Sequence record: NC_047889.1
Reading direction: 5' to 3' (one strand)
Source of the DNA: Escherichia phage mutPK1A2
Length of the DNA stretch: 44,784 bases
The position numbers were made by a program, and so were the translations under genes. Under the pieces are notes generated by a model, which was given only the letters and a program-made list of their open reading frames with translations, searched no databases and had not been told where the DNA came from. Positions 6,707 through 36,361 of this stretch are shown here, piece after piece. The stretch's first letter is position 1, and each line of letters begins with the position of its first letter.

Positions 6707-8695
6707 ATGACTATTATTCAGAATGTACCGTGTCCTGCCTGTCAAAAGAATGGACATGATATTACTGGCAACCATCTTATGATATTTGAGGATGGCGCTG
6801 GTTACTGTAACCGTGGTCACTTCCATGATAACGGTAAGCCTTATTACCATAAGCCAGAGGGTGGCATCGAGATAACCGAATTGCCTATTACTGGCAATAT
6901 TAAATATACACCTTCTCAGTTTAAAGAGATGGAGAAGGAAGGGAAGATTAGCGACCCTAAGCTACGCGCCATCGCACTTGGTGGTATGCGTATGAAAGAC
7001 CGTTGGGGGGTTATGAATGAGCAAGAAAGGGCAGACCAAGAAGCAGAGTGGAAACTTGATGTTGAATGGTTCCTCACGCTTAAGCGTAAGAACCTTGTAT
7101 CCCGTCACATTCGAGGTGACATCGCAGCAATGTACGATGTGCGCGTTGGACACGATGAAGAGGGAAGAGTCAACCGTCACTATTATCCACGATATGAAAA
7201 GGGTGTGCTTGTTGGAGCAAAATGCCGGACGTTGCCGAAGGATTTTAAGTTCGGACACCTAGGTAAACTCTTTGGTATGCAAGATCTTTTCGGGATGAAT
7301 ACTTTGTCTCACGTGTTAGACAAGGGAAGACGAAAGGATTGCTTGCTTATTGTGGGCGGCGAACTGGATGCACTAGCAGCACAGCAAATGCTCCTTGATT
7401 CTGCCAAGGGTACTAAGTGGGAAGGCCAGCCTTATCATGTATGGTCTGTCAACAAAGGCGAGTCTTGCCTTGAAGAGATAGTGCAGAACCGTGAGCATAT
7501 CGCCCAATTCAAGAAGATTATATGGGGTTTTGATGGAGATGAGGTAGGGCAGAAGCAGAATCAGCAAGCGGCTCGCCTGTTTCCTGGCAAATCCTATATC
7601 CTTGAATACCCATCTGGTTGCAAAGATGCTAACAAGGCATTGATGGCTGGCAAGGCTAAAGAGTTTGTTGATGCTTGGTTTAATGCCAAGTCATCTGATG
7701 AAGTCTTTGGTAGCCAGATTAAATCTATCGCATCTCAAAGGGATAAGCTCAAGGCTGCACGTCCAGAGCAAGGGCTATCATGGCCTTGGCCTAAGCTGAA
7801 CAAGGTAACGCTAGGTATTCGTAAGAACCAGCTTATCATTGTAGGTGCAGGCTCTGGTGTAGGTAAGACTGAGTTCCTCCGCGAAGTGGTTAAACATCTT
7901 ATTGAAGAACACGGTGAATCTGTAGGCATCATTTCTACAGAAGACCCGATGGTCAAGGTGTCCCGTGCTTTTATCGGTAAGTGGATTGATAAGCGCATTG
8001 AGTTACCGCCAACCAATGACCCGAAAGAAGACGGATACCGTGAGGTGTTCGACTACACCGAGGAAGAAGCTAACGCTGCCATTGATTATGTGGCTGATAC
8101 AGGAAAGCTATTTGTGGCTGACCTAGAAGGCGACTATTCTATGGAGAAGGTAGAGCAAACTTGCCTAGAGTTTGAGGCTATGGGCATTTCTAATATCATC
8201 ATTGATAACTTAACGGGGATTAAATTAGATGAGCGTGCTTTTGGTGGGAAGGTTGGTGCACTTGATGAATGCGTCAAACGAATTGGTACTATCAAAGACC
8301 GACATGCGGTTACGATTTTCCTTGTCTCTCACCTTACACGTCCTCCGGCAAACCGTACCCAACACGAAGAAGGTGGCGAAGTTATCCTTTCTGACTTCCG
8401 AGGCTCAGGCGCTATCGGATTCTGGGCATCTTACGCCTTGGGGATTGAGCGTAATACAAGAGCTGAAACGCTTGATGAAAGGACTACCACGTACATCTCG
8501 TGTGTCAAAGACCGCGACCAAGGAATCTACACTGGAACCAAGGTCATGCTTAAGGGTGACATTCAAACCGGACGTTTAATGGAACCACAAGCCCGTACTA
8601 AGTCATTTGATACAGGTGAAGCAAGGCAACAAGAAGTACCTGATTTACCTGACACTATAGAAGGGACTAACTTCGATGAAGAAAGTGAGTTCTGA
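6707..8695 (+). CDS. DNA primase/helicase (T7 gp4-like)
   Basis: 662 aa; N-terminal Cys zinc-binding region (CPACQ...CNRGH), Walker A GAGSGVGKT, acidic C-terminus ending EESEF. Confidence 0.9.
   Translation: MTIIQNVPCPACQKNGHDITGNHLMIFEDGAGYCNRGHFHDNGKPYYHKPEGGIEITELPITGNIKYTPSQFKEMEKEGKISDPKLRAIALGGMRMKDRWGVMNEQERADQEAEWKLDVEWFLTLKRKNLVSRHIRGDIAAMYDVRVGHDEEGRVNRHYYPRYEKGVLVGAKCRTLPKDFKFGHLGKLFGMQDLFGMNTLSHVLDKGRRKDCLLIVGGELDALAAQQMLLDSAKGTKWEGQPYHVWSVNKGESCLEEIVQNREHIAQFKKIIWGFDGDEVGQKQNQQAARLFPGKSYILEYPSGCKDANKALMAGKAKEFVDAWFNAKSSDEVFGSQIKSIASQRDKLKAARPEQGLSWPWPKLNKVTLGIRKNQLIIVGAGSGVGKTEFLREVVKHLIEEHGESVGIISTEDPMVKVSRAFIGKWIDKRIELPPTNDPKEDGYREVFDYTEEEANAAIDYVADTGKLFVADLEGDYSMEKVEQTCLEFEAMGISNIIIDNLTGIKLDERAFGGKVGALDECVKRIGTIKDRHAVTIFLVSHLTRPPANRTQHEEGGEVILSDFRGSGAIGFWASYALGIERNTRAETLDERTTTYISCVKDRDQGIYTGTKVMLKGDIQTGRLMEPQARTKSFDTGEARQQEVPDLPDTIEGTNFDEESEF
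8643..8665 (+). promoter_or_regulatory. Phage promoter ATTTACCTGACACTATAGAAGGG inside the 3' end of the primase/helicase gene
   Basis: Good consensus match; T7-like phages often embed promoters in the ends of genes. Confidence 0.6.
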
Positions 8696-8716
8696 TTAGT
8701 GTATTTATTAGGGCTT

Positions 8717-8732
8717 GTCTCACATGTGAGAC
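8717..8732. repeat. 16-bp palindrome GTCTCACATGTGAGAC (copy 3, extended stem CTTGTCTCACATGTGAGACAGG)
   Basis: Exact core with extended complementary arms, followed by CTCTTATT. Confidence 0.85.
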
Positions 8733-8771
8733 AGGCTCTTATTAAGTATATTAAATAACTGGAGATTGATT

Positions 8772-9494
8772 ATGTATAAATTAGTATTGAATGCAGGTGA
8801 TTATGTTCGTAACATCAATGAAGCCTCACGTCGTTATCGTTGCCGTGGTGTAGTGGATCGTGTAAGTGAGAACATGTATCATGTAGAATATGATGATGGT
8901 GTTAAGGCTTCTTATCACAAGAAAACTGCACATAAATATCTTGAAAAGGTTGTAGAGGTAAACAATCAATGTAAGTGCATACATGATGAGGTTTGCGATA
9001 AGTGCAGACGTCAGGCAATTAAAGCCTTTACCTTTGCTCAACGCTATGGCTCTATGTATGGTACTGGTCACAAGACCCTTGCAGAAGCAGCTTGGAAGAC
9101 ATTGCAGTTTGAGCATTCAAATGGACGACGCACCACACTTAAGAAAGAGCGCCGCAATGTAATCACTGGTAAGACTCAAAGTGAGATGATTAAGCAATGT
9201 GGCACTGCATTAGGTGTTACACAGTTTAATACTCGTGCATTGGGTAAATCCACAGGACAAGCTATGGTAAAGATTGGCGAAGCCATGATGCATCCAAATG
9301 TACCTGTGCGAATCATGGATGTTGACCATGCAATCACAGAACAAGGTACGCAACGACGTGTAATTAATAAGCATTTTGCCGACACTATAGAAGGTATTAT
9401 TCGTAAGCAAGGGTTGAAAGGTCTTCACATCTTAAATGGTGAAGAATTACTGTACCTACCTATCGTTACTGAAGAAACCTACGTGAATATCTAA
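8772..9494 (+). CDS. Hypothetical protein (240 aa) with Cys cluster CKCIHDEVCDKC
   Basis: ORF track (first ATG at 8772, RBS GGAG); between primase and DNA polymerase. Confidence 0.6.
   Translation: MYKLVLNAGDYVRNINEASRRYRCRGVVDRVSENMYHVEYDDGVKASYHKKTAHKYLEKVVEVNNQCKCIHDEVCDKCRRQAIKAFTFAQRYGSMYGTGHKTLAEAAWKTLQFEHSNGRRTTLKKERRNVITGKTQSEMIKQCGTALGVTQFNTRALGKSTGQAMVKIGEAMMHPNVPVRIMDVDHAITEQGTQRRVINKHFADTIEGIIRKQGLKGLHILNGEELLYLPIVTEETYVNI
9373..9395 (+). promoter_or_regulatory. Weaker promoter-like element ATTTTGCCGACACTATAGAAGGT inside a CDS
   Basis: Core GACACTATAGAAGG conserved; upstream half diverges from consensus. Confidence 0.4.
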
Positions 9495-9504
9495 GGAGTT
9501 AATC

Positions 9505-9723
9505 ATGACTAAGGTATTAATTTATATGCGTGGACCTCATAAATGCTATGCAGTTGTAGCACCAGATGGTGTTAAGCCCTATGGTACTTCAAAAGGATTG
9601 GCATTAATAGGTGCTAGTCGTAGTGCAAGTTTCCAAATGGAACTTTTTGGTCATTGGACTGAATGGCAATTCCGTGAGGATTTTAAAGTCATTGGCAGCT
9701 TCATGGTGAAACATGCAAAATAA
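9505..9723 (+). CDS. Hypothetical protein (72 aa)
   Basis: ORF track; strong RBS TAAGGAG. Confidence 0.55.
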   Translation: MTKVLIYMRGPHKCYAVVAPDGVKPYGTSKGLALIGASRSASFQMELFGHWTEWQFREDFKVIGSFMVKHAK

Positions 9724-9922
9724 ACATAGTCTTAAAATGTTCGATGGTCATGAAGACCTGCAAGCCAAGATTACTAACCAAGCCTTCCTGTTTGCACAGC
9801 TAACTATGGCTGAAGCAAAGAAGAATAGCCTGACGCGCGAGCAAGTTATCAAAGAGGCAACTTGGGAGCCACACCAAGGCAAATACATGGGCCAGAAATT
9901 AACTGTAACACGCAGTCGATAA
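9713..9922 (+). CDS. Hypothetical protein (69 aa)
   Basis: ORF track; overlaps the previous gene by 11 nt; start uncertain. Confidence 0.4.
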   Translation: MQNKHSLKMFDGHEDLQAKITNQAFLFAQLTMAEAKKNSLTREQVIKEATWEPHQGKYMGQKLTVTRSR

Positions 9923-9932
9923 GTAAAGGGTT

Positions 9933-9948
9933 GTCTCACACGTGAGAC
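9933..9948. repeat. Palindrome variant GTCTCACACGTGAGAC (copy 4)
   Basis: One central substitution (CACGTG for CATGTG); follows an ORF stop and is followed by CCTTTC. Confidence 0.8.
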
Positions 9949-9979
9949 AGCCTTTCATCATATTGATTGGAGGTGCATT

Positions 9980-10087
9980 ATGTCACGTGATTATGATTCT
10001 GATTGGGATTTCCAAGATTCAATGAACTCAAAACCTGAACGTTCAGATGACTACTACGAAACAGAGGCAATGTATGAAAGCTATTAA
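9980..10087 (+). CDS. Small acidic protein (35 aa)
   Basis: RBS GGAGGT 7 nt before ATG; short, so tentative. Confidence 0.35.
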   Translation: MSRDYDSDWDFQDSMNSKPERSDDYYETEAMYESY

Positions 10088-10292
10088 AGTCAGTAAGGTT
10101 TGCTCTTGCGGTAAAGGTTATCGCAGTCGTATTGATGGTAAGTGTGGGCATTGCAGGTCTAAGAAAGAGGCTGCTTTGTTTGATAAGTACCACAATGAAT
10201 TAGCATATAACTATCCTCATCTAACACCTAATTCTTTATTAGGACTTGGTTATAGGGTTAAATACTTTGGAGCAATCTATGAAATCAATTGA
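10074..10292 (+). CDS. Small zinc-ribbon-like protein (72 aa; CxC...CxxC)
   Basis: In-frame ATG at 10074 with GAGG upstream inside track ORF 10047..10292; four Cys in VCSCGKG...CGHC; overlaps the DNAP start by 14 nt. Confidence 0.45.
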   Translation: MKAIKVSKVCSCGKGYRSRIDGKCGHCRSKKEAALFDKYHNELAYNYPHLTPNSLLGLGYRVKYFGAIYEIN

Positions 10293-12825
10293 TTGGAAGA
10301 AGGAAGCAGAAGGCCGCATCTTAGTGATGGATTCTGAGGCTAAAGGCCTGCTGGATGCTATCCGATATGGCCACCGCGAAGATGTGCACATCATTTGCTG
10401 CATGGATTTGCTTACTACAGAGGAGTTCCTCTTCTTTGACCCATACGAGATGCGTGACCCTGAAGCAAGAGAACGCCTAAAAGAATGGGAAGGCCATCAA
10501 GATGGAACATTGGTTGACGGTGTTAACTTCCTTAAGCACTGCGAAGCCATCGTCTCACAGAACTTCCTAGGGTACGACGGCCTTCTATTTGAGAAAGCAT
10601 TCCCTGATATCTGGAAAGGCTTTAACTATACCGAGAGACGCGGCAAGGGCAGACTCCGCGCTGACCTGTGTCCGGTACGCGTCATGGATACGCTGGTCAT
10701 GAGTCGCCTGTTAAACCCCGATAGACGCCTCCCTCCGCAAGCATACGCCAAAGGCATGGGTAACGTAGCCCCTCACTCAATTGAGGCGCACGGCATCCGT
10801 ATAGGCCGTTATAAGCCGGAGAACGAGGACTGGTCTAAACTAACGGACCACATGGTTCACCGTGTACGTGAAGACGTGGCTATTGGTCGCGACCTCTTCC
10901 TCTGGCTATACAACGGGGAATGGACGGAGCACAAACGCCGTGGCGTGAATAAACGTACGGGCCTAGGCATTGAGACGGCCTTCCACATGGAATCAATTGT
11001 GGCGCTGGAGATGAGCCGTCAGGCCGAGCGTGGATTCCGTCTGGATATAGATAAAGCATTAGCACGATGCGAGGAATTGGACGCTAAGATTGATGAGACA
11101 GTCGCAGCGTTCCGTCCGCACATGCCTATGCGTATCAGGTCTAAACCTTTTAAACCGGAAGAAAAGAATGAAGTATGCCAACGCGCAAATGAGTATGGAG
11201 CTAGCAACAATATACCTACTGTCCTTGACCCCTCACACTTTCTTCATGCCGAGAGACGAGGAGATCGCAAAACAGTATGGAGTGTCACTACTAAGTCTGG
11301 TGATTGGTCGGCTAGTATCAAGAAAGACTTTCCTCACCTTAGAGGAAACCGTAATGACACGCCAAGTATCAAGTGGATTGGCGCTTACTCGCCTGTTACT
11401 TTCGAAGAGATTCCCTTGGGTAACAGGGATACAGTTAAGCAAGTGCTCTATGATTATGGATGGAAAGGTGTTGAATTTAACGATACCGAGCAAGCGCATC
11501 TGGATGAGTATGGAGTGTTACCCAAACCTTGGAGTGGGAAGATAAATGAAAAGTCCCTTACTTTATGGCAAGAGAGAGCCGCACGTGAAGGTAAAACAGT
11601 CCCTGATTGGTGCTTGGGTATCGCTGCATGGTACATACTCGTATCCCGTCGTGGTCAGATCCTTAACCGTGGTGACGTTGAAGCCTTCGACCAGAAGGGG
11701 GCGTGGCCTTCGCAAGCTGGTGTACGAAAGTGTCGCGGCCTTGTACCTGTAGCATTTAACAAGGAGTTAGGAATCAATGCGCAGCAATATTACGAAAGGT
11801 ACGGATGCTGGCCTACGTCAGACAAGGATGACGGAGAGTGGCGTGTGCCAGCTATTGCTATTAGTATTGGAACTTCTACGTTCCGTATGCGTCATCGTAA
11901 CGTGGTTAATATTCCTGCCCGTGGTTTGTATCCTTTACGTGATTTATTCATAGCCGGTAAAGGTAAGCTAATCCTTGGTTGTGATGGTGCTGGTCTTGAA
12001 CTACGTGTACTGTCTCACTTCATGAATGACCCTGAATATCAAGATATTGTACTGCATGGTGACATTCACACCCATAATCAAATGAAGGCTGGTCTTCCTA
12101 AGCGTGACATGGCGAAGACATTTATATATGCCTTCCTATATGGGTCTGGTATAGCTAGCCTTGCAGCAGTATGTGGTGTTACTGAGGAAGAAATGGAGGA
12201 AGTTGTGGCAAGATTTGAGGTTGAACTACCATCTCTTGCACGTCTTCGTGAGAATGTTATCGCACAAGGTAACAAGTTTGGCTACCTACAAGCACCTGAT
12301 GGTCATTGGGGTCGCATCCGTATGTCTGGTGGTGAACTTAAAGAGCACACTATGCTTAACGTGTTACTCCAAATGACTGGCTCTTTGTGTATGAAATACG
12401 CATTGGTCAGAGCGTTTGCAGTGATGCGCAAGGAAGGTGTGGCCTTAGATAGCATGGGAAACCCTTGCGGTATAGCTAACGTGCACGATGAAATCCAGAT
12501 GGAAGTCCCTGAAGATGAGGTCTTGTTTCTCAACTACGACTTGCCTTTCACCTTAGAAGGGTTCGAAACAGAGAAGGCTGCTGTGAAAGCAGTGTTCGAT
12601 GCAGAGGAGAAACGTGTTCATGTGGATTCTGAAGGACGTATGTGGTCTGCTGCAAATCTCGTTAGCGTTGATGCTGATGCTGGTGTACTTCATTGCCAGC
12701 GTCGCTATCACCGTGCAGGGCATATCATTGCCGACGCAATGACTTGGGCGGGTCAGTATCTGAAGATGCGTTGTCCGATGGCAGGTGAGTATAAGATTGG
12801 TGCAAGTTGGAAGGAGACACACTAA
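10279..12825 (+). CDS. Family A DNA polymerase (T7 gp5-like)
   Basis: 848 aa from ATG 10279 (RBS GGAG); exo motif DSEAKGL, pol motifs DGAGLELRVL, RDMAKTFIYAFLYGSG, HDE. Confidence 0.95.
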   Translation: MKSIDWKKEAEGRILVMDSEAKGLLDAIRYGHREDVHIICCMDLLTTEEFLFFDPYEMRDPEARERLKEWEGHQDGTLVDGVNFLKHCEAIVSQNFLGYDGLLFEKAFPDIWKGFNYTERRGKGRLRADLCPVRVMDTLVMSRLLNPDRRLPPQAYAKGMGNVAPHSIEAHGIRIGRYKPENEDWSKLTDHMVHRVREDVAIGRDLFLWLYNGEWTEHKRRGVNKRTGLGIETAFHMESIVALEMSRQAERGFRLDIDKALARCEELDAKIDETVAAFRPHMPMRIRSKPFKPEEKNEVCQRANEYGASNNIPTVLDPSHFLHAERRGDRKTVWSVTTKSGDWSASIKKDFPHLRGNRNDTPSIKWIGAYSPVTFEEIPLGNRDTVKQVLYDYGWKGVEFNDTEQAHLDEYGVLPKPWSGKINEKSLTLWQERAAREGKTVPDWCLGIAAWYILVSRRGQILNRGDVEAFDQKGAWPSQAGVRKCRGLVPVAFNKELGINAQQYYERYGCWPTSDKDDGEWRVPAIAISIGTSTFRMRHRNVVNIPARGLYPLRDLFIAGKGKLILGCDGAGLELRVLSHFMNDPEYQDIVLHGDIHTHNQMKAGLPKRDMAKTFIYAFLYGSGIASLAAVCGVTEEEMEEVVARFEVELPSLARLRENVIAQGNKFGYLQAPDGHWGRIRMSGGELKEHTMLNVLLQMTGSLCMKYALVRAFAVMRKEGVALDSMGNPCGIANVHDEIQMEVPEDEVLFLNYDLPFTLEGFETEKAAVKAVFDAEEKRVHVDSEGRMWSAANLVSVDADAGVLHCQRRYHRAGHIIADAMTWAGQYLKMRCPMAGEYKIGASWKETH

Positions 12826-12923
12826 TGCAAACTGCTTTTATCATTCTTGGGATCATATTATTTATGGTAGTACTCTGGGCTTTCTCTGGCATTGACCCAG
12901 ATTGTGATGGTAACTACGACTGA
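12825..12923 (+). CDS. Small hydrophobic membrane peptide (32 aa)
   Basis: ATG overlapping the DNAP stop (TAATG); AGGAG upstream; sequence MQTAFIILGIILFMVVLWAFSG is one TM helix. Confidence 0.3.
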   Translation: MQTAFIILGIILFMVVLWAFSGIDPDCDGNYD

Positions 12924-12991
12924 GTTATACTCAAGGTCACTTACGAGTGGCCTTTATGCATAACTTATTCCTACTTATTTTGTCTAACATG

Positions 12992-13014
12992 ATTTACTGG
13001 ACACTATAGAAGGA
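12992..13014 (+). promoter_or_regulatory. Phage promoter ATTTACTGGACACTATAGAAGGA
   Basis: Exact consensus copy. Confidence 0.75.
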
Positions 13015-13078
13015 AATCCTAGGTAATCTAGGTTTATAAGGTAGTATAGGTAACTAAGTAAATATAGGAGATATAAAT

Positions 13079-13465
13079 ATGTCTATGGTAACTACTCTGG
13101 TATTCGTGGCTCAATACTTTCGTGGTCTGGCTAATAAGTTCAAGTCCAAGGCCATCAAAGCTATTGAGTCTCGCATCGAAGCAGTACAGGCAGAGCAAGT
13201 TAAAGTTGAAGACCATCGTAGTTCTCAAATGATTGACTGTCACAACCGCTACTATGCATCTCGTGATGAATTAAATGCACGTCAAGTCAAAGAGGTTGAA
13301 GAAATGATGGCACGTCACCAGCAAGAGCGTGACAACCTGAAAGCTGACTTCGAAGAGAACAAGGCATCCATTGCTCTGGTACATCAAGCTGCATCTGATA
13401 GCTTGAAGAAAGAGATTGTTATGCTGGAAATTGAACTGGACAACTTGACTAATAAGGAGCTATGA
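13079..13465 (+). CDS. Hypothetical coiled-coil protein (128 aa)
   Basis: ORF track; RBS TAGGAG; heptad-like charged sequence. Confidence 0.6.
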   Translation: MSMVTTLVFVAQYFRGLANKFKSKAIKAIESRIEAVQAEQVKVEDHRSSQMIDCHNRYYASRDELNARQVKEVEEMMARHQQERDNLKADFEENKASIALVHQAASDSLKKEIVMLEIELDNLTNKEL

Positions 13466-13761
13466 TGGAAGAAGTGATTCAAGCTAAACATGTAGGTATC
13501 ATCTTTCGTGATCTAGAGCAGCGTAAAGTTGCAGGTCATACCCGTTTGGCTAAAGAAGATGATACAGCAATCACTACTGTTGAACAAGCAGATGCCTATC
13601 GTGGTCCAGAGTTTACTCAAGGTGAAACTTGTCACCAATTGAGCCTATCACTTTGTGACACCATGGCTATTGTAAATGTGCAAGAAGTTGAAGAAGGTGA
13701 GTGTGTCAGTTACATCTACCCTTTAGATACTATTGCACGCATTAAGGTAATCCATAAGTAA
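13462..13761 (+). CDS. Hypothetical protein (99 aa)
   Basis: ORF track; RBS AAGGAG; start overlaps the previous stop. Confidence 0.55.
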   Translation: MMEEVIQAKHVGIIFRDLEQRKVAGHTRLAKEDDTAITTVEQADAYRGPEFTQGETCHQLSLSLCDTMAIVNVQEVEEGECVSYIYPLDTIARIKVIHK

Positions 13762-13783
13762 TTACTGGACACTATAGAACAAT
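13759..13783 (+). promoter_or_regulatory. Phage promoter (AATTACTGGACACTATAGAACAA)
   Basis: Consensus core; followed by a roughly 190-bp structured leader with several hairpins before a strongly expressed gene. Confidence 0.7.
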
Positions 13784-13974
13784 AGGATGTGGGTTTGTCG
13801 GAGACAGTAAAGCCAAGGTGCTCAGTGAGCGTAAAGCCTAAGCACGTCCTATGATTGTAAAGTGTTGATGTTGAACCCTTGTGCATCTTGCACAACCCGA
13901 TACTATATCGGGCTTTCTAGTGAGTACATGCTTGTGCTCAGTACAAAGCTAACTGACAATAGGAGACTAAATAA

Positions 13975-14781
13975 ATGGCACGTGGTGATTTTGATTTTGG
14001 TGCTCAGATTACTAAATCTGAAGGTAAAGTCTTTAAGAATCCAGAAGTAGGTGATCATGAAGCAGTAATCTCTGGCATCATTCATGTTGGTTCCTTCCAA
14101 GACATCTTTAAGAAAGGTAATACCACTGAAGTTAAGAAGCCAGCAAACTTTGTTCTGGTTAAGATTGTCCTGATGGGTGACGATGACAAGAACGAAGATG
14201 GTTCTCGCATGGAACAATGGATGGCTGTGCCTCTGAAGTCTGGTGATAAGGCAACACTGACTAAGTTCCTGAATGCAGTTGACCCTAAAGAGTTGCTGGG
14301 TGGCTTCGATGATTTCATTGGTGAATGCCTGACTGCAACGATGGTTGGTTCTGGTGACAAGAATGACGATGGCTCATTCAAGTATGTTAACTGGAAAGGT
14401 TTCGGTGGTATGCCGGACAAGCTGAAGAAACTTGTCATTGCTCAGGTTGAAGAAGAAGGTCTGTCGATGACAGGTCACATCACCTTCGACAAACTGACCA
14501 AAGAAATCCTTGATGATATTCCTGCTAACTTGGTGCGTCAATACTTCCTTAACGAGACGCCTCGTGGTAAGAACATGTCTGTTTCTGGTTCTCACGTAGA
14601 AGCAATCATCAAAGCTGCTCGCGAAGAAGACCCAGAGTGGAAGAAGGCTAAGAAGAAAGAAGAGGAAGATGCTACCCCAGCTAATCGTAAATCTCTGGCT
14701 ACTGGTGAGTCTGTTCCGCAGGAAGTACCTGAAGCAGAAGATACTCCTGCACCGGAGATGGATGAGGACGCGGAATATTAA
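13975..14781 (+). CDS. Putative ssDNA-binding protein (gp2.5-like)
   Basis: 268 aa; own promoter and structured leader; acidic C-terminal tail ending DEDAEY as in T7 gp2.5; no direct similarity verified. Confidence 0.4.
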   Translation: MARGDFDFGAQITKSEGKVFKNPEVGDHEAVISGIIHVGSFQDIFKKGNTTEVKKPANFVLVKIVLMGDDDKNEDGSRMEQWMAVPLKSGDKATLTKFLNAVDPKELLGGFDDFIGECLTATMVGSGDKNDDGSFKYVNWKGFGGMPDKLKKLVIAQVEEEGLSMTGHITFDKLTKEILDDIPANLVRQYFLNETPRGKNMSVSGSHVEAIIKAAREEDPEWKKAKKKEEEDATPANRKSLATGESVPQEVPEAEDTPAPEMDEDAEY

Positions 14782-14790
14782 GGAGAACGG

Positions 14791-15009
14791 ATGAAAGTAC
14801 AAATCGTAACTCTACATTGCAAGAAAGGAGTCACCACGCTTGGCGGCAACACTTTTCACTCCTTCTCCGAAGGGGAGGTTTATGCTGACCTGCACTACAT
14901 CTGGCGCGATGGGCAGCACGTGGTGAACTACAGCGACCCTGCGACTGGTAAACGCCACGGCGTGTCGCTTCCGGCGCACGACATTGCGCAGGTGAACACA
15001 GTTTTATAA
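14791..15009 (+). CDS. Hypothetical protein (72 aa)
   Basis: ORF track; RBS AAGGAG. Confidence 0.5.
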   Translation: MKVQIVTLHCKKGVTTLGGNTFHSFSEGEVYADLHYIWRDGQHVVNYSDPATGKRHGVSLPAHDIAQVNTVL

Positions 15010-15010
15010 A

Positions 15011-15026
15011 GTCTCACACGTGAGAC
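15011..15026. repeat. Palindrome variant GTCTCACACGTGAGAC (copy 5)
   Basis: Immediately after a stop codon and 15 bp upstream of the promoter at 15042. Confidence 0.8.
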
Positions 15027-15041
15027 AACTCGGTGTCCGGT

Positions 15042-15064: not shown

Positions 15065-15114
15065 AAGAATTTTAATCGGCGATAATGCCATAACCAACAA
15101 AAGGAGAATTTAAT

Positions 15115-28591: not shown

Positions 28592-31539
28592 TGGCAATTG
28601 AGCGACAAGCAGTACAAGGTCTGCCACAAGTGCAGGCCACTTCTCCTAATGTCATGACCTTTGCACCTCAACAAGTGGGAGGTGTGGAGGCTGGCGTGGC
28701 TTCTACCTCCGGTAGTAGGTTTATCGAAGACCTTATTCGTGCAGCAAGCAGCGTGGCTGATGTTACCACTGGTATCCTTAATCAGAAGATTGAGGAAGAT
28801 AAGGTTGTTCAAATGGAACGGGCATATAACGGATTAATGCCTTCTGAGGATGCAACTCGTGGTGGCGCTCGTGCTAACATGCTTGTCAAAGCTCAACTGC
28901 TAGCTAATGATGAAGCAGCACGAATGAAAGACATGGCTACTCGTTTCCAAGGGACGGATGACGAGTGGACACAACTTATGGTTGACTCTCGTAATGAGAT
29001 GCAGAATAAGCTGTTCCAGCAATACCCTGAGTTGCAAGGTGACAAAGATACTATGCGTATGGTCACTAATGTCTTCCAAGAACAGCAGCCTCAGATTTGG
29101 GCTACACGGACCCAGCATAAACTTGACCGTGAACAAGCAGACCGTGAGGATACCTTTGACGGGCGAGTGGCTTCTACTTGGGATTCTAATATTGACCCTG
29201 AAGCATCTGGCTATGCTTTACAGGAACGAATCCGCGAAGGTCTGACTCAAGGATTACTACCTGAACAGATGCACAAGAAGTTAGTCCAGCGGGCAATTTC
29301 ACTTGCACAAGGTGGGGATGTTAGCATGGCTGAAGCACTGAAGTATGTGAAGGACGATAAGGGCGTTTCTGTTTATGCTAAGAATCCACAGCTTATCACA
29401 GCCATCACTAGTGGTAATGCAGTTTGGGCTAGGAATAATGTAGCTGATGTAACTCGTATGTCTTTCGAAGTTAAAGAATCATACCTTGCAGGCGATTTAA
29501 CTGATGAAGAATTATTGGAACGAGCACAGCACATTAATAATCTGACAGGTAACTCTGTCTTCTCTAATTCAGAGCTAGAGGCACTGATGCGCAAACGGGC
29601 TAAGCAGAATGCAGAGCTAGGTGCAATGCAGGATATGCGACGTGAGCTTTACTCCGACCGCCTGACTGGCTTCCAAGGTAAGACTGATAAAGAGAAGAAG
29701 GCTTACATTGATGTTATCAAACAGGATAGCCAACTTTATGCAGACCAGCAAATCAAACAACGTGGCTTGGACCCTTACAGTCAAGAGGCTGAAGCTATTC
29801 GTGGTGCAGTGGAAGTGCAGCGCCTGCAATTCATGAACTCCAAAGGCTTAGTGGATGATACCTTTGAGTCTCGTATCAAAGCCATGGAATCTATGCTATC
29901 GCCTGAGCACTTTGCCAAGGGCGAACCACAGGAGTTGATGACTATTCGCCAGTTGTGGGAACAGTTGCCAGAAGAGAGCCGAGGTGTCTTTGGTGACACG
30001 GTGAATGGCTACATGGATAACTACAACACTGCACTACAAATGGGAGAGACACCTTTGCAGGCTGCAAGGTTTGCGCGTGAAGCACAGCAGAAATTCTCTC
30101 GTACTGAGAAGGAAAACAAGAAGTTCAACTCAGCTATTGGAGATGCACTGGATGAGGTATCTGGTGCTGGCTGGTTTGATGGTAAAACCGAAGTGTCAGA
30201 CTTAGGTAAAGCTATTGCGGAAGAAGAGTTACGAGCTAAGGCCAATATGTTGTGGTCTAGCGGTATGCGTAACATGGATTCTATCAAGAAGGCTTTAATT
30301 ACTTGGGGCAATAAACGCTACACTCAATCAGAGGATGCAAAGACTTCAGGTGGCTATTTCATTAAAGGTGATTACACTTCTGCATCTGATATGCTTATGT
30401 CAGTTGGGAAAGGTGTAAACCCTACCGATGTCCCTCTGGCGCTTGGTAGGTATGTAGAAACACAGATGCCAGAATTGAAGAAGGAGCTTCAAGAGTGGGA
30501 AACTAAGGATGATGTGTACATTGATTACAATGAACAGAAAGGAACTTTTGTGATTCGTGCTGGTGCAGCAGGTCGCCCTCTTTCTGGAGTAATCCCTGTA
30601 ACTTCTTTGGATACCACTTCACTACTGGATTCTGCCTATCAGAAGAAAGTAGAAGAACGAGATAAAGGCGAGTATGTTCATCCCTATCGTACAGGTATCG
30701 GTGCACAAGAACCAATGCCAGCTAAGCCAACTGCCAAAGATATTGGTAAATTTGGACTAGCTAACTTCCTCATGTCTTCTGCTTTTGCTTCTGGTGAGAA
30801 TCTGCCTTCTAACTTCGAGATTAACTATCGAGGTAATATGCAACAATTCTATGACAAGCTAGCTATGGATGAGAATAAAGATAAAGTTGGCTTTAATAAG
30901 GCAACTGGAACCTTTACTCCATATAAAGACGCTCACGGTGAGTCTATCGGTTACGGTCATTTCTTAACGGAAGAAGAGAAGCGAAACGGGTATATTAAGA
31001 TTGGCGATGAACTAGTTCCCTATCGAGGGTCTATGTCTCAGCTTACAGAGAGTAAGGCTCGCGCTCTTATGGAGCAAGATGCTAAGAAGCATGTGCCTCC
31101 TACTCGTGACTGGAAGATTCCGTTTGACCAGATGCATCCTGCACAGCAACGTGGCTTGATGGATTTAACCTACAATTTAGGTAAAGGTGGAATCCAGAAC
31201 TCACCGCGTGCTCTTGCTGCATTCAAAGCTGGTAAACTTACGGAAGGCTTTATCGAAATGCTGGGTACTGCATCTAGTGAAGGTAAACGTGTTTCTGGCT
31301 TACTGAAGCGACGTGCTGAGGCTTACAATATGGCATCTGCTGGTGGTGTGCCTAAGATTACCGAAGTGGAGACTCGTGAAGATGGCTCCATGTGGGTTAG
31401 GTTTGGTGGCCCTATGCCAGCAGGTTCTGTCTCGGCATGGACTCATAAACGTATTGGCGCGGATGGTTGGTATCAGGTTTATGATGCTGCACCTACCAAG
31501 TTAACTAAAGATTCTAAGGTAGGTAAAGTTAAATTGTAG
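28591..31539 (+). CDS. Internal virion protein with C-terminal GH24 lysozyme-like domain
   Basis: 982 aa; C-terminal region (about nt 30900..31330) has T4-lysozyme-like motifs DAHGESIGYGH and LMDLTYNLGKGG. Confidence 0.75.
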   Translation: MAIERQAVQGLPQVQATSPNVMTFAPQQVGGVEAGVASTSGSRFIEDLIRAASSVADVTTGILNQKIEEDKVVQMERAYNGLMPSEDATRGGARANMLVKAQLLANDEAARMKDMATRFQGTDDEWTQLMVDSRNEMQNKLFQQYPELQGDKDTMRMVTNVFQEQQPQIWATRTQHKLDREQADREDTFDGRVASTWDSNIDPEASGYALQERIREGLTQGLLPEQMHKKLVQRAISLAQGGDVSMAEALKYVKDDKGVSVYAKNPQLITAITSGNAVWARNNVADVTRMSFEVKESYLAGDLTDEELLERAQHINNLTGNSVFSNSELEALMRKRAKQNAELGAMQDMRRELYSDRLTGFQGKTDKEKKAYIDVIKQDSQLYADQQIKQRGLDPYSQEAEAIRGAVEVQRLQFMNSKGLVDDTFESRIKAMESMLSPEHFAKGEPQELMTIRQLWEQLPEESRGVFGDTVNGYMDNYNTALQMGETPLQAARFAREAQQKFSRTEKENKKFNSAIGDALDEVSGAGWFDGKTEVSDLGKAIAEEELRAKANMLWSSGMRNMDSIKKALITWGNKRYTQSEDAKTSGGYFIKGDYTSASDMLMSVGKGVNPTDVPLALGRYVETQMPELKKELQEWETKDDVYIDYNEQKGTFVIRAGAAGRPLSGVIPVTSLDTTSLLDSAYQKKVEERDKGEYVHPYRTGIGAQEPMPAKPTAKDIGKFGLANFLMSSAFASGENLPSNFEINYRGNMQQFYDKLAMDENKDKVGFNKATGTFTPYKDAHGESIGYGHFLTEEEKRNGYIKIGDELVPYRGSMSQLTESKARALMEQDAKKHVPPTRDWKIPFDQMHPAQQRGLMDLTYNLGKGGIQNSPRALAAFKAGKLTEGFIEMLGTASSEGKRVSGLLKRRAEAYNMASAGGVPKITEVETREDGSMWVRFGGPMPAGSVSAWTHKRIGADGWYQVYDAAPTKLTKDSKVGKVKL

Positions 31540-31556
31540 TACCTAACTCAAGGCTT

Positions 31557-31572
31557 GTCTCACATGTGAGAC
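31557..31572. repeat. 16-bp palindrome GTCTCACATGTGAGAC (copy 6, extended stem)
   Basis: Exact core with flanks CTT...AGG, followed by TCTTTAT. Confidence 0.85.
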
Positions 31573-31603
31573 AGGTCTTTATGATAGGCACTATGGAGGA
31601 ACT

Positions 31604-34600
31604 ATGGAACAAGATATTAAGACTAATTGGGCTGGATATGTCCAGTCTACTCCTGAGCCGTTTTCTATTGAGGCGGCTCCGGTATCGGCTCCTACGATAC
31701 GCCAGCGTAATGAGTTACAAGAGCAAGTTCTTGAAGCCAAAGCTGATGCGGACATCTTAGGTGCTGTAGGTGCTGCCTTCCAGAATGAATGGTTGGCATT
31801 TGGAGGTAAGCGATGGTATGACCGTGCCACTGCTGATTTCACACCTCAACCTGACTTTGAAATCCAACCGGAGCAACGTGAAGCTCTTCGCTTCAAATAC
31901 GGCACGGATATGATGCAGACAATCACTGAGGGTGTTCGTTCTGAGGATGAATTGAACTTCCGTATTCAGAATGCTGATGAAGACCTTGAGCGTAATAAAC
32001 GTATTGCGCAGGCTGGCTGGGTTGGCTCTGTGGCAACGATTGGTGCTGCTGTGCTTGACCCTGTTGGCTGGGTTGCCTCTATTCCAACCGGTGGTGCAGC
32101 TAAAGTTGGACTTGTAGGCCGTGCTGTGCGTGGTGCTATCGCCGCTGGCGTGAGTAATGCCGCTATTGAATCCGTATTGGTCCAAGGTGACATGACTCGT
32201 GATTTAGATGACATTATGGTGGCACTAGGCTCAGGTATGGCGATGGGTGGCGTTATCGGCGCTGTAGCGCGTGGTAGGGCCACTAAGCTCAGTGAGCAAG
32301 GGGATGACAGAGCGGCAAGCATTGTGCGCAGTGCAGACGCAGGGGACCGCTATGTGCGTGCTGTTGCTGATGACAGTATCGGTGCGATGCGTGTTAAGGG
32401 TGAAGAGGTACTCACTGAGGGTGCATTTGATATCTCTAGCAAAGGTGAAGATTTGCTGAAAATCCTACAGCGGGAAGGTAATGCAATTGATATGACACCT
32501 CGCCGCTGGGCCGGAACTATGTCTGCCCTTGGGACTGTCGTGCACTCCTCTCAGGATGCTAGTGTTCGTGGCCTCGGTGCTCGCCTGTTTGAGTCTCCGC
32601 AAGGTTTAGGTATGCAAAAGGCATCTGCCAGTCTTATGCAGAATACCAACTTGAATCGACTGAAGTCTGCTGATATGAACCGTTTCAATGACGGGTTTGA
32701 CTTATGGCTCAAAGAGAATAATATCAATCCAGTTGCAGGCCATACTAACTCTCACTATGTGCAACAATATAATGAGAAGGTATGGGAAGCTGTACGCATC
32801 GGTATGGATGAGTCTACGCCTAAGTCTATCCGTATGGCAGCAGAGGGGCAGCAAGCTATGTATCGTGAAGCATTAGCATTACGTCAACGCTCTGGTGAAG
32901 CTGGGTTTGAAAAGGTCAAAGCAGATGATAAGTACATGCCTGATATTTTTGACAGTATGAAGGCTCGTCGTCAATTCGGTATGCACGATAAAGAGGACAT
33001 CATTGAGCTATTCTCTCGTGCATACCAGAATGGTTCTCGTAAGGTTCCAAAGGAAGTGGCTGATGAGATTGCACGTGCACAAGTAAACCGTGTTGTGGAT
33101 GCCACTCTGACAGGACGTATGAGTTTCGAAAAGGCTATGTCTGGTCAGACTAAAGCAGAGTATGAAGCAATAATGCGCAAGGCAGGCTTCAGTGATGAAG
33201 AAATTGAAAAGATGGTAGAAGCTCTGGATAATAAAGAAACCAGAGATAATATCTCTAACCGAGCTAAGATGAGTTTAGGCTTAGATGTTACTCAAGAGTA
33301 CAATGGCATTCGTATGCGTGACTTTATGAATACTAACGTGGAAGAGTTAACAGATAACTACATGAAGGAAGCGGCAGGTGGTGCTGCCTTGGCTCGTCAA
33401 GGTTTCTCTACCTATCAGGCTGCACTTAATGCAATTGACCTTGTAGAGCGAAATGCACGAAATGCAGCTAAAGATACAAAAGCGCACGCACAATTTGAAG
33501 CGGAGTCTGCTAAGATTCGTCAATCAGAGCCTGATTACAAGAAGGCACAAGAGAAGATTGAAGAGTTAAAGAAGCGACTTAAATTGAAAGAGAAAGATGA
33601 AGCAGCTGGTCTGGCTATTGATGAAGAAATCCGTCAGATGCGAGAAGGGCTTCGCTTGATTATGGGTAAATCTATCGATGCAGACCCACAGGCTTTGTCT
33701 ACTAAAATGCTGCGTCGTGGTCGTGACATTACAGGTGTACTTCGCTTAGGTCAGATGGGCTTCGCACAGCTAGGTGAACTTGCTAACTTCATGGGTGAGT
33801 TTGGTATTGCTGCAACCACTATAGCTTTAGGTAAGCAATTCCGCTTTACATCTAAGGCTTTGCGGAGCGGTGATGGCTTCTTCCGAGATAAGAACTTGGC
33901 AGAAGTAGAGAGGATGGTAGGTTACATTGGTGAGGATAACTGGCTAACAACCAAGGGTGCACGTCCAGATGAGTTTGGTGATGTAACCACAGTAAGAGGG
34001 ATGATGGCTCACTTTGACCAATCCATGAACTCAATACGTCGTGCTCAGACCAACCTATCACTCTTCCGAATGGCACAAGGCTCTCTGGAGCGAATGACCA
34101 ATAGGCAAATAGCTTTGTCTTTCATTGACCACCTTGAAGGCAAGAGGATTATTCCTCAGAAGAAACTGGAGGAACTTGGTCTTACTCAGGAGTTCATGAC
34201 TAACCTACAGAAGCACTATGATGCTAACTCTAAAGGTTCTGGCTTGCTTGGCTTTGATACAATGCCTTATGCCATGGGTGAAACTTTAGCTAATGCTATT
34301 CGTCGTAAGTCAGGTATAATTATCCAACGTAACTTCATTGGTGATGAAGGTATCTGGATGAACAAAGCACTAGGTAAGACATTTGCACAGCTTAAGTCAT
34401 TCTCTCTTGTATCTGGTGAGAAGCAATTTGGTCGAGGGATTCGCCACGATAAAATTGGTCTTGCTAAGAAGACAGCTTACGGGTTTGCTTTGGGTTCAAT
34501 AGTGTATGCGGCAAAAGCCTATGTGAACTCTATTGGGCGAGAAGACCAAGATGAATATTTGGAAGAGAAGTTATCGCCTAAAGGGTTGGCCTTTGGTGCA

Positions 34601-34912
34601 ATGGGTATGATGAGTACAACTGCTGTATTTAGTCTAGGTGGAGATTTCTTAGGTGGCCTAGGTGTTCTACCTTCCGAACTCATTCAATCACGCTATGAAG
34701 CAGGTTTCCAAAGTAAGGGTCTGATTGACCAAATACCTCTGGTTGGCGTTGGTGCAGATGCAGTAAATCTGGCTAATTCAATCAAGAGGTATGCAGAAGG
34801 TGACACAGAAGGTGTAGATGTCGCTAAGCGAGCACTTCGTCTTGTGCCACTAACTAATGTAATAGGTGTCCAAAACGCATTGCGTTATGGCTTAGATGAA
34901 CTGGAGGATTGA
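31604..34912 (+). CDS. Large internal virion (core/ejection) protein
   Basis: 1102 aa; RBS GGAGG; position and size consistent with T7 gp15/gp16-class core proteins. Confidence 0.75.
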   Translation: MEQDIKTNWAGYVQSTPEPFSIEAAPVSAPTIRQRNELQEQVLEAKADADILGAVGAAFQNEWLAFGGKRWYDRATADFTPQPDFEIQPEQREALRFKYGTDMMQTITEGVRSEDELNFRIQNADEDLERNKRIAQAGWVGSVATIGAAVLDPVGWVASIPTGGAAKVGLVGRAVRGAIAAGVSNAAIESVLVQGDMTRDLDDIMVALGSGMAMGGVIGAVARGRATKLSEQGDDRAASIVRSADAGDRYVRAVADDSIGAMRVKGEEVLTEGAFDISSKGEDLLKILQREGNAIDMTPRRWAGTMSALGTVVHSSQDASVRGLGARLFESPQGLGMQKASASLMQNTNLNRLKSADMNRFNDGFDLWLKENNINPVAGHTNSHYVQQYNEKVWEAVRIGMDESTPKSIRMAAEGQQAMYREALALRQRSGEAGFEKVKADDKYMPDIFDSMKARRQFGMHDKEDIIELFSRAYQNGSRKVPKEVADEIARAQVNRVVDATLTGRMSFEKAMSGQTKAEYEAIMRKAGFSDEEIEKMVEALDNKETRDNISNRAKMSLGLDVTQEYNGIRMRDFMNTNVEELTDNYMKEAAGGAALARQGFSTYQAALNAIDLVERNARNAAKDTKAHAQFEAESAKIRQSEPDYKKAQEKIEELKKRLKLKEKDEAAGLAIDEEIRQMREGLRLIMGKSIDADPQALSTKMLRRGRDITGVLRLGQMGFAQLGELANFMGEFGIAATTIALGKQFRFTSKALRSGDGFFRDKNLAEVERMVGYIGEDNWLTTKGARPDEFGDVTTVRGMMAHFDQSMNSIRRAQTNLSLFRMAQGSLERMTNRQIALSFIDHLEGKRIIPQKKLEELGLTQEFMTNLQKHYDANSKGSGLLGFDTMPYAMGETLANAIRRKSGIIIQRNFIGDEGIWMNKALGKTFAQLKSFSLVSGEKQFGRGIRHDKIGLAKKTAYGFALGSIVYAAKAYVNSIGREDQDEYLEEKLSPKGLAFGAMGMMSTTAVFSLGGDFLGGLGVLPSELIQSRYEAGFQSKGLIDQIPLVGVGADAVNLANSIKRYAEGDTEGVDVAKRALRLVPLTNVIGVQNALRYGLDELED

Positions 34913-35874
34913 TGAGTTATACTTTCACAGAACATATAGCCAACGGTACGCAAGTTACCTATCCCTTTAGCTTTGCTGGTAGGGATAAAGGTTATCTTCG
35001 TGCCTCAGATGTGATAGTGGAATCTCTTCAAGGTAACACTTGGATTGAGGTTACATCTGGCTGGCAATTAACTGGTACGCATCAAATCACTTTTGATGTA
35101 GCACCCGTTGCAGGTTTGAAGTTCCGTATTCGAAGGGAAGTACAAAAGGAATATCCATACGCTGAGTTTGACCGTGGTGTTACCTTGGATATGAAGTCTT
35201 TAAATGGTTCTTTCATTCATATACTGGAGATTACACAGGAGTTACTTGATGGGTTTTATCCAGAAGGATACTTCATTAAGCAGAATGTAAGCTGGGGCGG
35301 CAATAAGATTACTGACCTAGCTGATGGTGAGAATCCAAAAGATGCAGTAAATAAATCACAGCTAGATGCTATCGACAAGAAGCATACTGATTGGAACTCT
35401 GCACAAGACATAGAGATTGCTGGTATTAAGAGAGGGATGGTGTCTGGTGTATCGCATCGCACTATCCCTTGGTATATGGTCGCCTCCGGTGGAGAGCAAA
35501 TCATTCGACCACCTTACTCATTTGATGATGCTATGGTGTTTATAAACGGTGTATTCCAGCATGAACTAGCAGGTGCAGTATCAGTGGGGTATGATGTTAT
35601 AACCCTGTCCGAGCCATTACAGGCTGGGGATGAAGTTTATGTGCTTATCGGTAGTCGCTTAACCCCACCTACAAGTGCGGATACTATCCTCTTTACACAA
35701 GCAGTGAGTGAAGGTACACAATCTATCGACATTGTAACGGCTTTCCAACGTCTTGATGTATATTTAGATGGCCTGTATCAACCTAATAATGCTTATGAAA
35801 TCGTAGGGTCTACTATCACTTTCAGTGAGCCATTACCTGAGTGTGTCGTAAGTATGAAGTTACAACTAGTGTAA
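34912..35874 (+). CDS. Tail fiber-like adaptor protein (T7 gp17 N-terminal domain homolog)
   Basis: 320 aa from ATG 34912; N-terminal pattern resembles the T7 gp17 tail-attachment domain; short length fits an adaptor that carries separate tailspikes. Confidence 0.65.
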   Translation: MSYTFTEHIANGTQVTYPFSFAGRDKGYLRASDVIVESLQGNTWIEVTSGWQLTGTHQITFDVAPVAGLKFRIRREVQKEYPYAEFDRGVTLDMKSLNGSFIHILEITQELLDGFYPEGYFIKQNVSWGGNKITDLADGENPKDAVNKSQLDAIDKKHTDWNSAQDIEIAGIKRGMVSGVSHRTIPWYMVASGGEQIIRPPYSFDDAMVFINGVFQHELAGAVSVGYDVITLSEPLQAGDEVYVLIGSRLTPPTSADTILFTQAVSEGTQSIDIVTAFQRLDVYLDGLYQPNNAYEIVGSTITFSEPLPECVVSMKLQLV

Positions 35875-35883
35875 GGAGGTGCA

Positions 35884-36078
35884 ATGATTAACTCCGAACT
35901 GGTAGATAGTGGTGTGAAGCTGGCGCCACCTGCATTAGTATCAGGTGGGTACTTCCTCGGTATCAGTTGGGATAATTGGGTGTTAATAGCAACATTCATT
36001 TATACCGTGTTGCAAATTGGAGACTGGTTTTATAATAAGTTCAAGATTTGGAGGGAGAAGCGTGAGCGTACACAATAA
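35884..36078 (+). CDS. Holin (T7 gp17.5-like)
   Basis: 64 aa; RBS AAGGAGGTG; LGISWDNWVLIATFIYTVLQIG resembles T7 holin FGLSLNEWFYVAAIAYTVVQIG; one TM helix and a basic C-terminus. Confidence 0.7.
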   Translation: MINSELVDSGVKLAPPALVSGGYFLGISWDNWVLIATFIYTVLQIGDWFYNKFKIWREKRERTQ

Positions 36079-36361
36079 ACATGCAGCTACAGAGGATGAG
36101 GTTGGCATTCTGCATGGTGCTATTACCAAGATGTTCAACAAGAAAGCACAGGCAATACTGGACACTATAGAAGGGGATCCAGATGCAGCACTGGCTTTAG
36201 TGTCCGGTAAGGACATTGGAGCTATGTGTAAGTGGGTACTGGATAATGGCATCACTGCTACACCTGCTGCACAGCAGGAAGAATCCAAGTTATCTAAGCG
36301 CCTCAAGGCTATCCGAGAGGCATCAAGTGGCAAGATTATTCAGTTTACAAAAGAGGAGTAA
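36062..36361 (+). CDS. Putative terminase small subunit
   Basis: About 100 aa from GTG 36062 behind GGAGGG (track start 36017 is TTG inside the holin gene); upstream of large terminase. Function by position only. Confidence 0.45.
   Translation: MSVHNKHAATEDEVGILHGAITKMFNKKAQAILDTIEGDPDAALALVSGKDIGAMCKWVLDNGITATPAAQQEESKLSKRLKAIREASSGKIIQFTKEE
36154..36176 (+). promoter_or_regulatory. Promoter-like element AATACTGGACACTATAGAAGGGG inside the small terminase gene
   Basis: Core CTGGACACTATAGAAGG conserved; would drive HNH and large terminase. Confidence 0.5.

Follow-up and report, generated by a model that had tools for sequence, protein, structure and literature searches.

Why should a phage place promoters inside its genes, and what becomes of the protein sequence where it does? 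The question is raised by the genome of Escherichia phage mutPK1A2 (NC_047889.1), whose 44,784 nucleotides (nt) were analysed as a whole and are called the window below. An earlier note, made from the letters of this sequence, had described consensus promoter copies within the 3' end of the primase/helicase gene, inside an open reading frame (ORF) of 240 amino acids (aa) and inside the putative small terminase gene, and had proposed that the coding sequence there is constrained at both the protein and the promoter level. The three elements are very probably true promoters, read by the single-subunit RNA polymerase (RNAP) that the phage encodes, and they would lie inside coding sequence for lack of room at the gene junctions.

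The promoter family, ATTTACYGGACACTATAGAAG, is represented in the window by 12 plus-strand copies with at most two mismatches, against 1.29 expected, and none of 100 shuffled sequences reached 13. Exact copies of the 13-mer GACACTATAGAAG are found at 8651, 9381 and 36161 and in five other plus-strand places, and the 21-mer SP6 promoter has eight copies within three mismatches (none expected). All copies of the family are in gene orientation, on the plus strand, which carries all long ORFs of the window and all features described below. When mapped onto the ORFs, nine of the copies are intergenic or touch only the stop codon of the upstream gene (position -17 at 2337, 6341, 12992, 13760, 15042, 18193, 23399, 38692 and 41035; span 2337..41057), whereas three are wholly inside ORFs: promoter 1 (8643..8665, corresponding to -17 to +6; ATTTACCTGACACTATAGAAGGG) in the primase/helicase gene, promoter 2 (9373..9395; ATTTTGCCGACACTATAGAAGGT) in the 240-aa ORF, a real gene encoding a homologue of gp10, and promoter 3 (36153..36175; CAATACTGGACACTATAGAAGGG) in the small terminase gene. 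The first two thus stand where the earlier note had put them; the third had been placed at 36154, one base off.

A position weight matrix (PWM) trained on the nine non-embedded copies alone was used to score about 89,500 positions on both strands. The embedded sites ranked 8th, 11th and 13th, with scores of 35.6, 24.1 and 18.9, and the next unrelated position scored about 1.6. Positions -9 to +4, with the invariant GACACTATAG core of the consensus of about 23 bp (-17 to +6), are exact in all three sites. The term consensus copy fits site 1 in full, since it is an exact copy and as good as the intergenic ones; sites 2 and 3 have the perfect core but deviate upstream of it. Matches resembling the -35 and -10 elements of host sigma-70 promoters were not above the shuffle expectation in either region, and none coincides with the three sites. 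Judged by sequence, the three elements are members of the phage RNAP promoter family.

The window itself is, on the same kind of evidence, a K1E/K1-5-like Vectrevirus genome of the SP6 group. In BLAST searches of two sub-regions against GenBank phages, K1E, K1-5, vB_EcoP_K and other Vectrevirus genomes matched at 90–97% identity, and SP6-like Salmonella, Klebsiella and Citrobacter phages were more distant matches. The single-subunit RNAP (3621..6248; PF00940 and PF14700), the predicted cognate enzyme for the promoter family, is 99% identical to the RNAP of K1-5 and 85% identical to that of SP6. The RNAPs of K1E and K1-5 have been used experimentally to drive transcription from the K1E promoter (PMC6412113).

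Under the proposed mechanism, tight packing of genes would force promoters into the 3' parts of the upstream genes; the distance from the gp10 stop codon to the gp10.5 start codon, for instance, is 10 nt, and the junctions concerned have either no more than 10 nt between the genes or, after the helicase gene, a gap taken up by a hairpin. The mRNA would start at the G of TATAG, i.e. at G8660, G9390 and G36170, and a ribosome-binding site (RBS) with an ATG is found 112–195 nt past each predicted +1. Promoter 1 would feed the gene for the gp10 homologue (8772..9494; phrog_6703, E = 2e-109; function unknown), whose in-frame ATG at 8772 is preceded by GGAG and gives the 240-aa product. Promoter 2 would feed the genes at 9505..12825, namely gp10.5 (9505–9723, with an AAGGAG-N5-ATG start at 9505, 115 nt from the +1), gp11 (9713–9922), gp12 (10047–10292) and the DNA polymerase ORF (10246–12825, start not refined). 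Promoter 3 would feed the large terminase gene (36795..38693, ATG at 36795) and, where it is present, the HNH endonuclease gene (36365..36697), which is the first ORF after the site and has its GAGGAG-preceded ATG at 36365, 195 nt from the +1. The scan of the window revealed no other phage promoter within 6545–12991 or 23416–38691. The 6.4 kb that comprises the replication genes has no phage promoters besides 1 and 2, and the 15 kb after the capsid promoter (23399) has none besides promoter 3, which is also the first beyond a strong terminator-like hairpin that follows the major capsid gene (24683..24709). Transcripts from upstream read through in this phage group. By analogy with T7, each site would top up downstream transcription over read-through from upstream, and the embedded promoters most likely add to downstream expression rather than delimit transcription units. 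Initiation at these points, promoter strength and physiological role are predictions drawn from sequence and gene order.

Some T7 promoters serve as replication origins or in genome entry, and the three elements could likewise be RNAP-binding sites for another use, i.e. transcription-primed origins or RNAP-driven entry of the genome. Sites 1 and 2 do lie in the replication-gene cluster, and a conserved palindrome or hairpin is found beside site 1 and also beside the promoter at 6341 and a weaker promoter-like site at 6527 (see below). However, nothing here specifically indicates an origin, and downstream of each site come a leader, an RBS and genes, which is the usual layout of a promoter. We consider this explanation highly improbable; moreover, a role in replication or entry would add to the promoter function and not replace it.

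In addition to the 12 copies, two weaker promoter-like sites were observed. One of these (6527–6549, ATTTACCGGACAGTATAGATAAG) is located downstream of the RNAP gene, beside a copy of the palindrome, and is kept in K1-5 and most relatives; the other is at 2643–2665 (ATTTACTTACCACTATATAAGGT). On their sequences, both may act as promoters of low activity or for a special use. Together, the sites at 6341 and 6527 are reminiscent of T7 phi1.1A/B, which are found just after gene 1. A second terminator-like hairpin (6256–6279) follows the RNAP gene.

Codons shared by peptide and promoter

The reading of the three elements as promoters within genes implies that the same nucleotides serve two codes. 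All three embedded sites share one reading frame, GAC ACT ATA GAA GG(N), which is translated as D-T-I-E-G. Of the other sense frames of the promoter, one contains TAG and another reads F-T-G-H-Y-R-R with the codons AGA and AGG, whereas the frame in use reads L-L-D-T-I-E-G; the core would read Asp-Thr-Ile-Glu because this is the sole stop-free frame with ordinary codons. As only two sense frames are free of stops, agreement in frame is expected by chance in about 1 in 4 to 1 in 8 cases, so as evidence the shared frame of the embedded copies is suggestive only.

The composition of the proteome is more telling. DTIE occurs three times in the proteins of the window, against 0.17 expected, and DTIEG also three times, against 0.013 expected (Poisson P = 4e-7). 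Every DTIE is found at a promoter and is encoded by GACACTATAGAA, whereas the three other D-T-I tripeptides are encoded by GATACTATT, GATACTATC and GACACCATC. A check of codon usage across the promoter core, which the earlier note had suggested, likewise uncovered unusual choices. ATA, used at the core, is the rarest isoleucine codon (14%) and GGG the rarest glycine codon (10%), and the observed codons have, for the peptides that they encode, a joint probability of 1e-5 to 2e-4 per site. The enrichment of DTIEG combined with this choice of codons argues that the DNA motif imposes the peptide, and not the reverse. Together with the covariation of site 1 and the cluster of silent changes at the terminase site, both described below, the enrichment and the rare ATA codons support the view that the coding sequence at these sites is doubly constrained, by protein and by promoter, as had been proposed.

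The helicase-tail site across lineages

Promoter 1 occupies codons 646–653 (D-L-P-D-T-I-E-G) of the primase/helicase gene (6707..8695; phrog_239, E = 6e-187), within the last 53 nt of that gene, and its predicted +1, G8660, precedes the last base of the helicase stop codon (8695) by 35 nt. Homology to the primase/helicase family stops at residue 643, so that the promoter codons are beyond it, in an acidic C-terminal tail that ends in Phe. In T7, the tail of the gp4 helicase is a flexible polymerase-binding tail. A similar role here would explain why the helicase tail tolerates arbitrary peptides; in such a permissive acidic linker the promoter would win and dictate the peptide.

The 76-nt gap after the helicase gene is occupied by a long hairpin (8696..8755; z = -3.6) built on the palindrome GTCTCACATGTGAGAC, which is thereby part of the 112-nt leader that runs from the +1 of promoter 1 to the start codon of gp10. 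The resulting order of promoter, hairpin and gene resembles the order of promoter, RNase III site and gene in T7. An Rfam scan of the window gave no matches, so the leader hairpin represents no catalogued RNA family. The 16-nt perfect palindrome itself is present in eight copies with at most three mismatches (612, 6323, 6506, 7306, 8717, 9933, 15011 and 31557), against 0.23 expected; the copies are mostly located right after stop codons or right upstream of promoters, and the one at 8717 forms the core of the leader hairpin. Relatives have analogous palindromes of other sequence: the SP6-like loci contain GTCCAACGTGTTGGAC, and Proteus phage Pm5460 contains TGTCCAACACTGTTGGACA. In the record of Pm5460, a rho-independent terminator is annotated in the equivalent post-helicase gap. 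Candidate roles of the palindrome are in RNA processing or stability (as a hairpin), in weak termination or in the binding of a protein.

For comparison, 10, 20 and 29 related loci from IMG/VR were used along with the genomes of K1E, K1-5 and SP6, and the promoter consensus of each lineage was derived from the other promoter copies in the same locus, with the tail site left out. Site 1 was found in all K1E-like loci and in the majority of SP6-like ones. Over positions -12 to -10 its codon is Pro (CCN) in the K1E-like loci and Gly (GGT or GGG) in the SP6-like ones, in each case in agreement with the consensus of the clade itself. The same relationship extends further, as 11 of the 13 representative lineages have their own type of promoter at the corresponding place of the helicase tail. 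The tail sites have 0–5 mismatches in 23 positions to their own consensus, are in the same frame everywhere, and place the +1 23–47 nt before the stop codon. In the region from -13 to -5, they have 0–2 mismatches in nine positions to their own type and at least three to the other types, with the exception of the window, where CCT at -12 to -10 results in a tie, at two mismatches, with the SP6-type consensus. When the loci were arranged in eight specificity groups (K1E-like, SP6-like, Pectobacterium PP1, Proteus Pm5460, Lelliottia phD2B, Klebsiella-phage-like, Era103-like and a metagenomic lineage), the true pairing of tail sites with promoters was the single best of 40,320 permutations.

The tail peptides change along with the promoters. 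The K1E-like peptide is DLPDTIE and the SP6-like one E/DLGDTIE; Pectobacterium PP1 (L055) has DLGRTIE, Proteus Pm5460 (L056) ELETTIE, Lelliottia phD2B (L057) EIGATIE, the Klebsiella-phage-like lineage (L059) PIVAGIE, the Era103-like locus L061 ELPPNID, Erwinia Era103 itself (L063) ELPPSIE, and the metagenomic locus L065, which is about 85% identical to Salmonella phage Kenya-K30, has DMCCTIE. In L054 and L064, the tail site is missing; instead, a small gene further downstream has a promoter at its end, just before the DNA polymerase cluster. As a feature of the compared sequences, the subfamily-wide pattern of covariation is well supported.

The gp10 and small terminase sites

Promoter 2 comprises codons 201–208 (H-F-A-D-T-I-E-G) of the gene for the gp10 homologue (240 aa), whose stop codon follows after about 105 nt. 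The upstream half is off consensus, with T at -13 and GCC at -12 to -10, and the Phe codon of gp10 (TTT or TTC) rules out the consensus A at -13. The site is kept in the K1E-like genomes with small variation at -14 and at -11/-10; the SP6-like phages have a copy, TTACGTGACACTATAGG, displaced by about 12 nt, in a poorly conserved segment of the protein. On the sequences compared, the case for a promoter is weakest at the gp10 site.

Promoter 3 comprises codons 31–38 (A-I-L-D-T-I-E-G) of the 99-aa small terminase (36062..36361; PF11123, phrog_891). It was found in 15 of 15 K1E-like genomes, in two of them with a core substitution, but not in any of the nine SP6-like or more distant sequences compared. 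The SP6-like genomes encode AILD(A/S)IE by GCA ATC CTN GAT GCT ATC GAG, whereas the K1E-like genomes have GCA ATA CTG GAC ACT ATA GAA, and every codon difference between the two shifts toward the promoter. Silent differences that are fixed are seen in 3 of the 6 promoter codons, as opposed to 2 of 69 other codons of the small terminase (Fisher p = 0.003); in addition, GAC/GAT and GAA/GAG are nearly fixed between the clades and the change from Ala to Thr is fixed. The first ATA is the source of the near-invariant A at -13. Conversely, the Ala-Ile residues prevent ATT at -17 to -15, so at this site the protein limits the promoter. On this comparison, the terminase site arose within the K1E clade, mostly by silent changes. 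The motif AILD-x-IE would have existed beforehand, the K1E clade would have built the promoter on it by silent changes and the replacement of Ala by Thr, and at -17 to -15 the protein would have won.

The downstream unit of HNH endonuclease and large terminase that had been assigned to promoter 3 stands in its second part. The HNH gene belongs to an insertion of about 435 nt, at 36365–36798 in the window, between the small (TerS) and large (TerL) terminase genes that is present in 3 of the 15 K1E-like genomes (the window, L019 and L034), whereas elsewhere TerS abuts TerL. The promoter is found with or without the insertion and in all 15 genomes, so its conserved beneficiary would be the large terminase, and the HNH gene would be a sporadic addition. 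A 34-aa ORF (36694–36795) follows the HNH gene, overlaps its stop codon in ATGA and is helix-turn-helix-like (MKELRAVGMTYKQIAQSLNVSVATVFKHCKAGD); by its sequence, it is possibly a split or frameshifted DNA-binding domain of the homing endonuclease.

Not all observations favour the reading of the three elements as maintained promoters. The upstream halves of sites 2 and 3 are non-consensus (site 3 has CAA at -17 to -15), and their PWM scores are the lowest of the family. Neither L013/L052 nor any lineage outside the SP6/K1E group has site 2, just as site 3 is missing in all SP6-like loci. In L065, site 2 stays SP6-type and still reads GAC ACT ATA, although the locus's own promoters are ATTTGTGTTGCACTATAG; part of the conservation of site 2 may come from the protein or from recent common descent. 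Even the core is not immune. Site 3 has a silent C-to-T change at -7 in L019 and an Asp-to-Gly change (A-to-G at -8) in L025, and site 1 of K1-5 carries the same -7 T as site 3 of L019, so the sites are not absolutely fixed. Silent-site variation within the clade, at 6 of 20 promoter codons vs 383 of 784 others, is in the expected direction but underpowered (p = 0.07), as is the test of site 1 across the K1E and SP6 clades (p = 0.05–0.12); with 4–7 codons per site and close relatives, these tests were not used as primary evidence.

The same set of observations would fit a more modest explanation, in which site 1 alone works. The other two sites would resemble promoters but have hardly any activity, if any, and would owe their persistence to common descent and to selection for the encoded D-T-I-E in a conserved segment of the protein. 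This appears unlikely to us. In the SP6-like clade, a near-identical terminase peptide is written in entirely different codons, with the silent differences clustered on the promoter footprint, and selection on the peptide does not explain the two rare ATA codons of the terminase site. Site 2 of SP6, in turn, persists in a protein segment of 40% identity despite its shift of about 12 nt, which suggests that the DNA motif rather than the peptide was kept. Finally, sites 2 and 3 are the sole promoters available to the tightly packed genes downstream of them.

Two side observations concern the history of these sites. L065 (IMGVR_UViG_3300045988_000861), the metagenomic SP6-group phage mentioned above, has its sites at 7390–7412 and 8101 (also L026), and its mix of promoter types suggests that the specificity of the RNAP was changed or swapped recently and that not all promoter copies have followed. 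SP6 (L004), which has no copy in its small terminase gene, has an extra embedded look-alike, ACGCTAGGTGACACTATAGGTGCC, at 29392–29414 in gp36, again in the D-T-I frame. From these sequences, the SP6 and K1E-like clades may each have evolved their own late embedded promoter downstream of the capsid terminator.

The gp10 gene is also a mosaic. Cassettes at 8790–8940 and 9000–9150 go down to 30–70% nucleotide identity with some close relatives, whereas their flanks are 93–100% identical, and the sharing of cassettes differs between relatives, which suggests recombination within the gene.

This mosaicism, the short variable helicase tail that begins right after site 1 and the HNH insertion downstream of site 3 might be taken to mean that the conserved 20-mers are mainly joints for homologous recombination in module exchange and not selected promoters. 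However, the breakpoints in gp10 (about 8790, 9000 and 9150) do not coincide with site 2 at 9373; the HNH cassette is inserted some 190 nt beyond site 3, and most genomes with site 3 are without it. A role in recombination would also leave unexplained why the helicase-tail site tracks the specificity of its own RNAP. As the main explanation, the recombination joint was rejected because identity profiles put the mosaic boundaries away from site 2, and it retains very little probability.

Known phage promoters and the meaning of the embedded sites

Taken as promoters inside genes, the three elements have precedents in the Autographiviridae. T7 phi4c is also a promoter for a single-subunit RNAP that is located wholly in the primase/helicase coding sequence (CDS), upstream of the DNA polymerase region; in the T7 reference record, this class II promoter has its transcription start site (TSS) at 12671 in gene 4A/4B (CDS 11565–13265). 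Unlike site 1, it is about 600 nt before the stop codon and not in the C-terminal tail, and there is no sequence homology between the sites. Moreover, phi4c is in a stop-containing frame and has the degenerate sequence CAATCCGACTCACTAAAGAGAGA (TAA to CAA, TAG to AAG), whereas the sites described here have an open frame and a perfect core; phi4c would be degenerate because it is read in a frame where the consensus has stop codons. A closer counterpart is the promoter annotated at 8915–8937 in the primase/helicase CDS (6979–8967) of Proteus phage vB_PmiP_Pm5460 (KP890822), a phage of a different genus but likewise a member of the subfamily Molineuxvirinae. This promoter is orthologous to site 1 and shares with it the position in the tail, the frame and a +1 35 nt before the stop codon, but differs in its sequence, AATTAGAGACCACTATAGAAGAA, which encodes E-L-E-T-T-I-E. 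This promoter was called computationally, by PHIRE with manual verification.

The promoters of SP6, K1-5 and K1E (of the ATTTAGGTGACACTATAGAAG and ATTTACTGGACACTATAGAAG types) belong to the same family and share the gene order of the window. K1-5 has copies at all three gene positions, and SP6 at the first two, without the terminase site. A count of 12 promoters has been reported for SP6 (PMC11880802); as the genome has only 10 non-embedded copies, this count must include embedded ones. No promoter features are present in the GenBank records of K1E (AM084415), K1-5 (AY370674), SP6 (AY288927 and AY370673) and LL11, a full-text literature search for the K1E promoter string gave no match, and the literature search found no start-site mapping for SP6-group phages. 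Scholl in 2004 and Dobbins in 2004 are said to have listed these exact sites.

A lesser kind of overlap is seen in T7 phi1.3, 1.5, 1.6, 2.5, 4.3, 9 and 17, where the TSS is exactly 15 nt after the upstream stop codon and TAA at -17 to -15 is that stop. Such overlaps with a stop codon, which come about routinely where genes are tightly packed, cover only 2–6 nt and dictate no sense codons. Their parallels in the window are the promoters at 13760 and 38692, where the TAA stop of the upstream gene is at -18 to -16 (13759–13761 and 38691–38693), and at 18193, an ATTTAG variant, where the stop is TAG at -14 to -12 (18196–18198).

Embedded promoters are thus a known feature of T7- and SP6-group phages, to which the window adds members. 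Two aspects may be under-described, namely the subfamily-wide covariation at the helicase tail and the way in which the terminase promoter arose by silent substitutions. In practical terms, promoters of SP6-group RNAPs should be searched for inside genes too, as intergenic-only counts miss a quarter of the set in this genome. Likewise, recoding or codon-optimising the helicase, gp10 and small terminase genes of K1E-like therapeutic phages would destroy promoters predicted to feed DNA polymerase and large terminase. Prediction of the cognate promoter has been reported to be the limiting step for exploiting new single-subunit RNAPs (PMC11475235), and the syntenic copy in the helicase tail offers a positional shortcut to it within the subfamily.

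A broader scenario can be put forward tentatively. The helicase-tail promoter would be an ancient, syntenic dual-coding element across Molineuxvirinae, in which each change of RNAP specificity rewrote several codons of the primase/helicase linker, up to such unusual peptides as D-M-C-C-T-I-E, and the terminase promoter would be a datable birth inside a gene, almost wholly by silent substitutions. If true, nature would here provide a case in which the specificity of a polymerase has driven the replacement of amino acids in an unrelated essential protein, and the helicase tail would provide a fixed positional anchor for reading the cognate promoter of any uncharacterised SP6-group RNAP. For the evolution of these phages, the embedded sites make a compact, testable case of overlapping protein and regulatory codes, in which the winner depends on the permissiveness of the protein segment.

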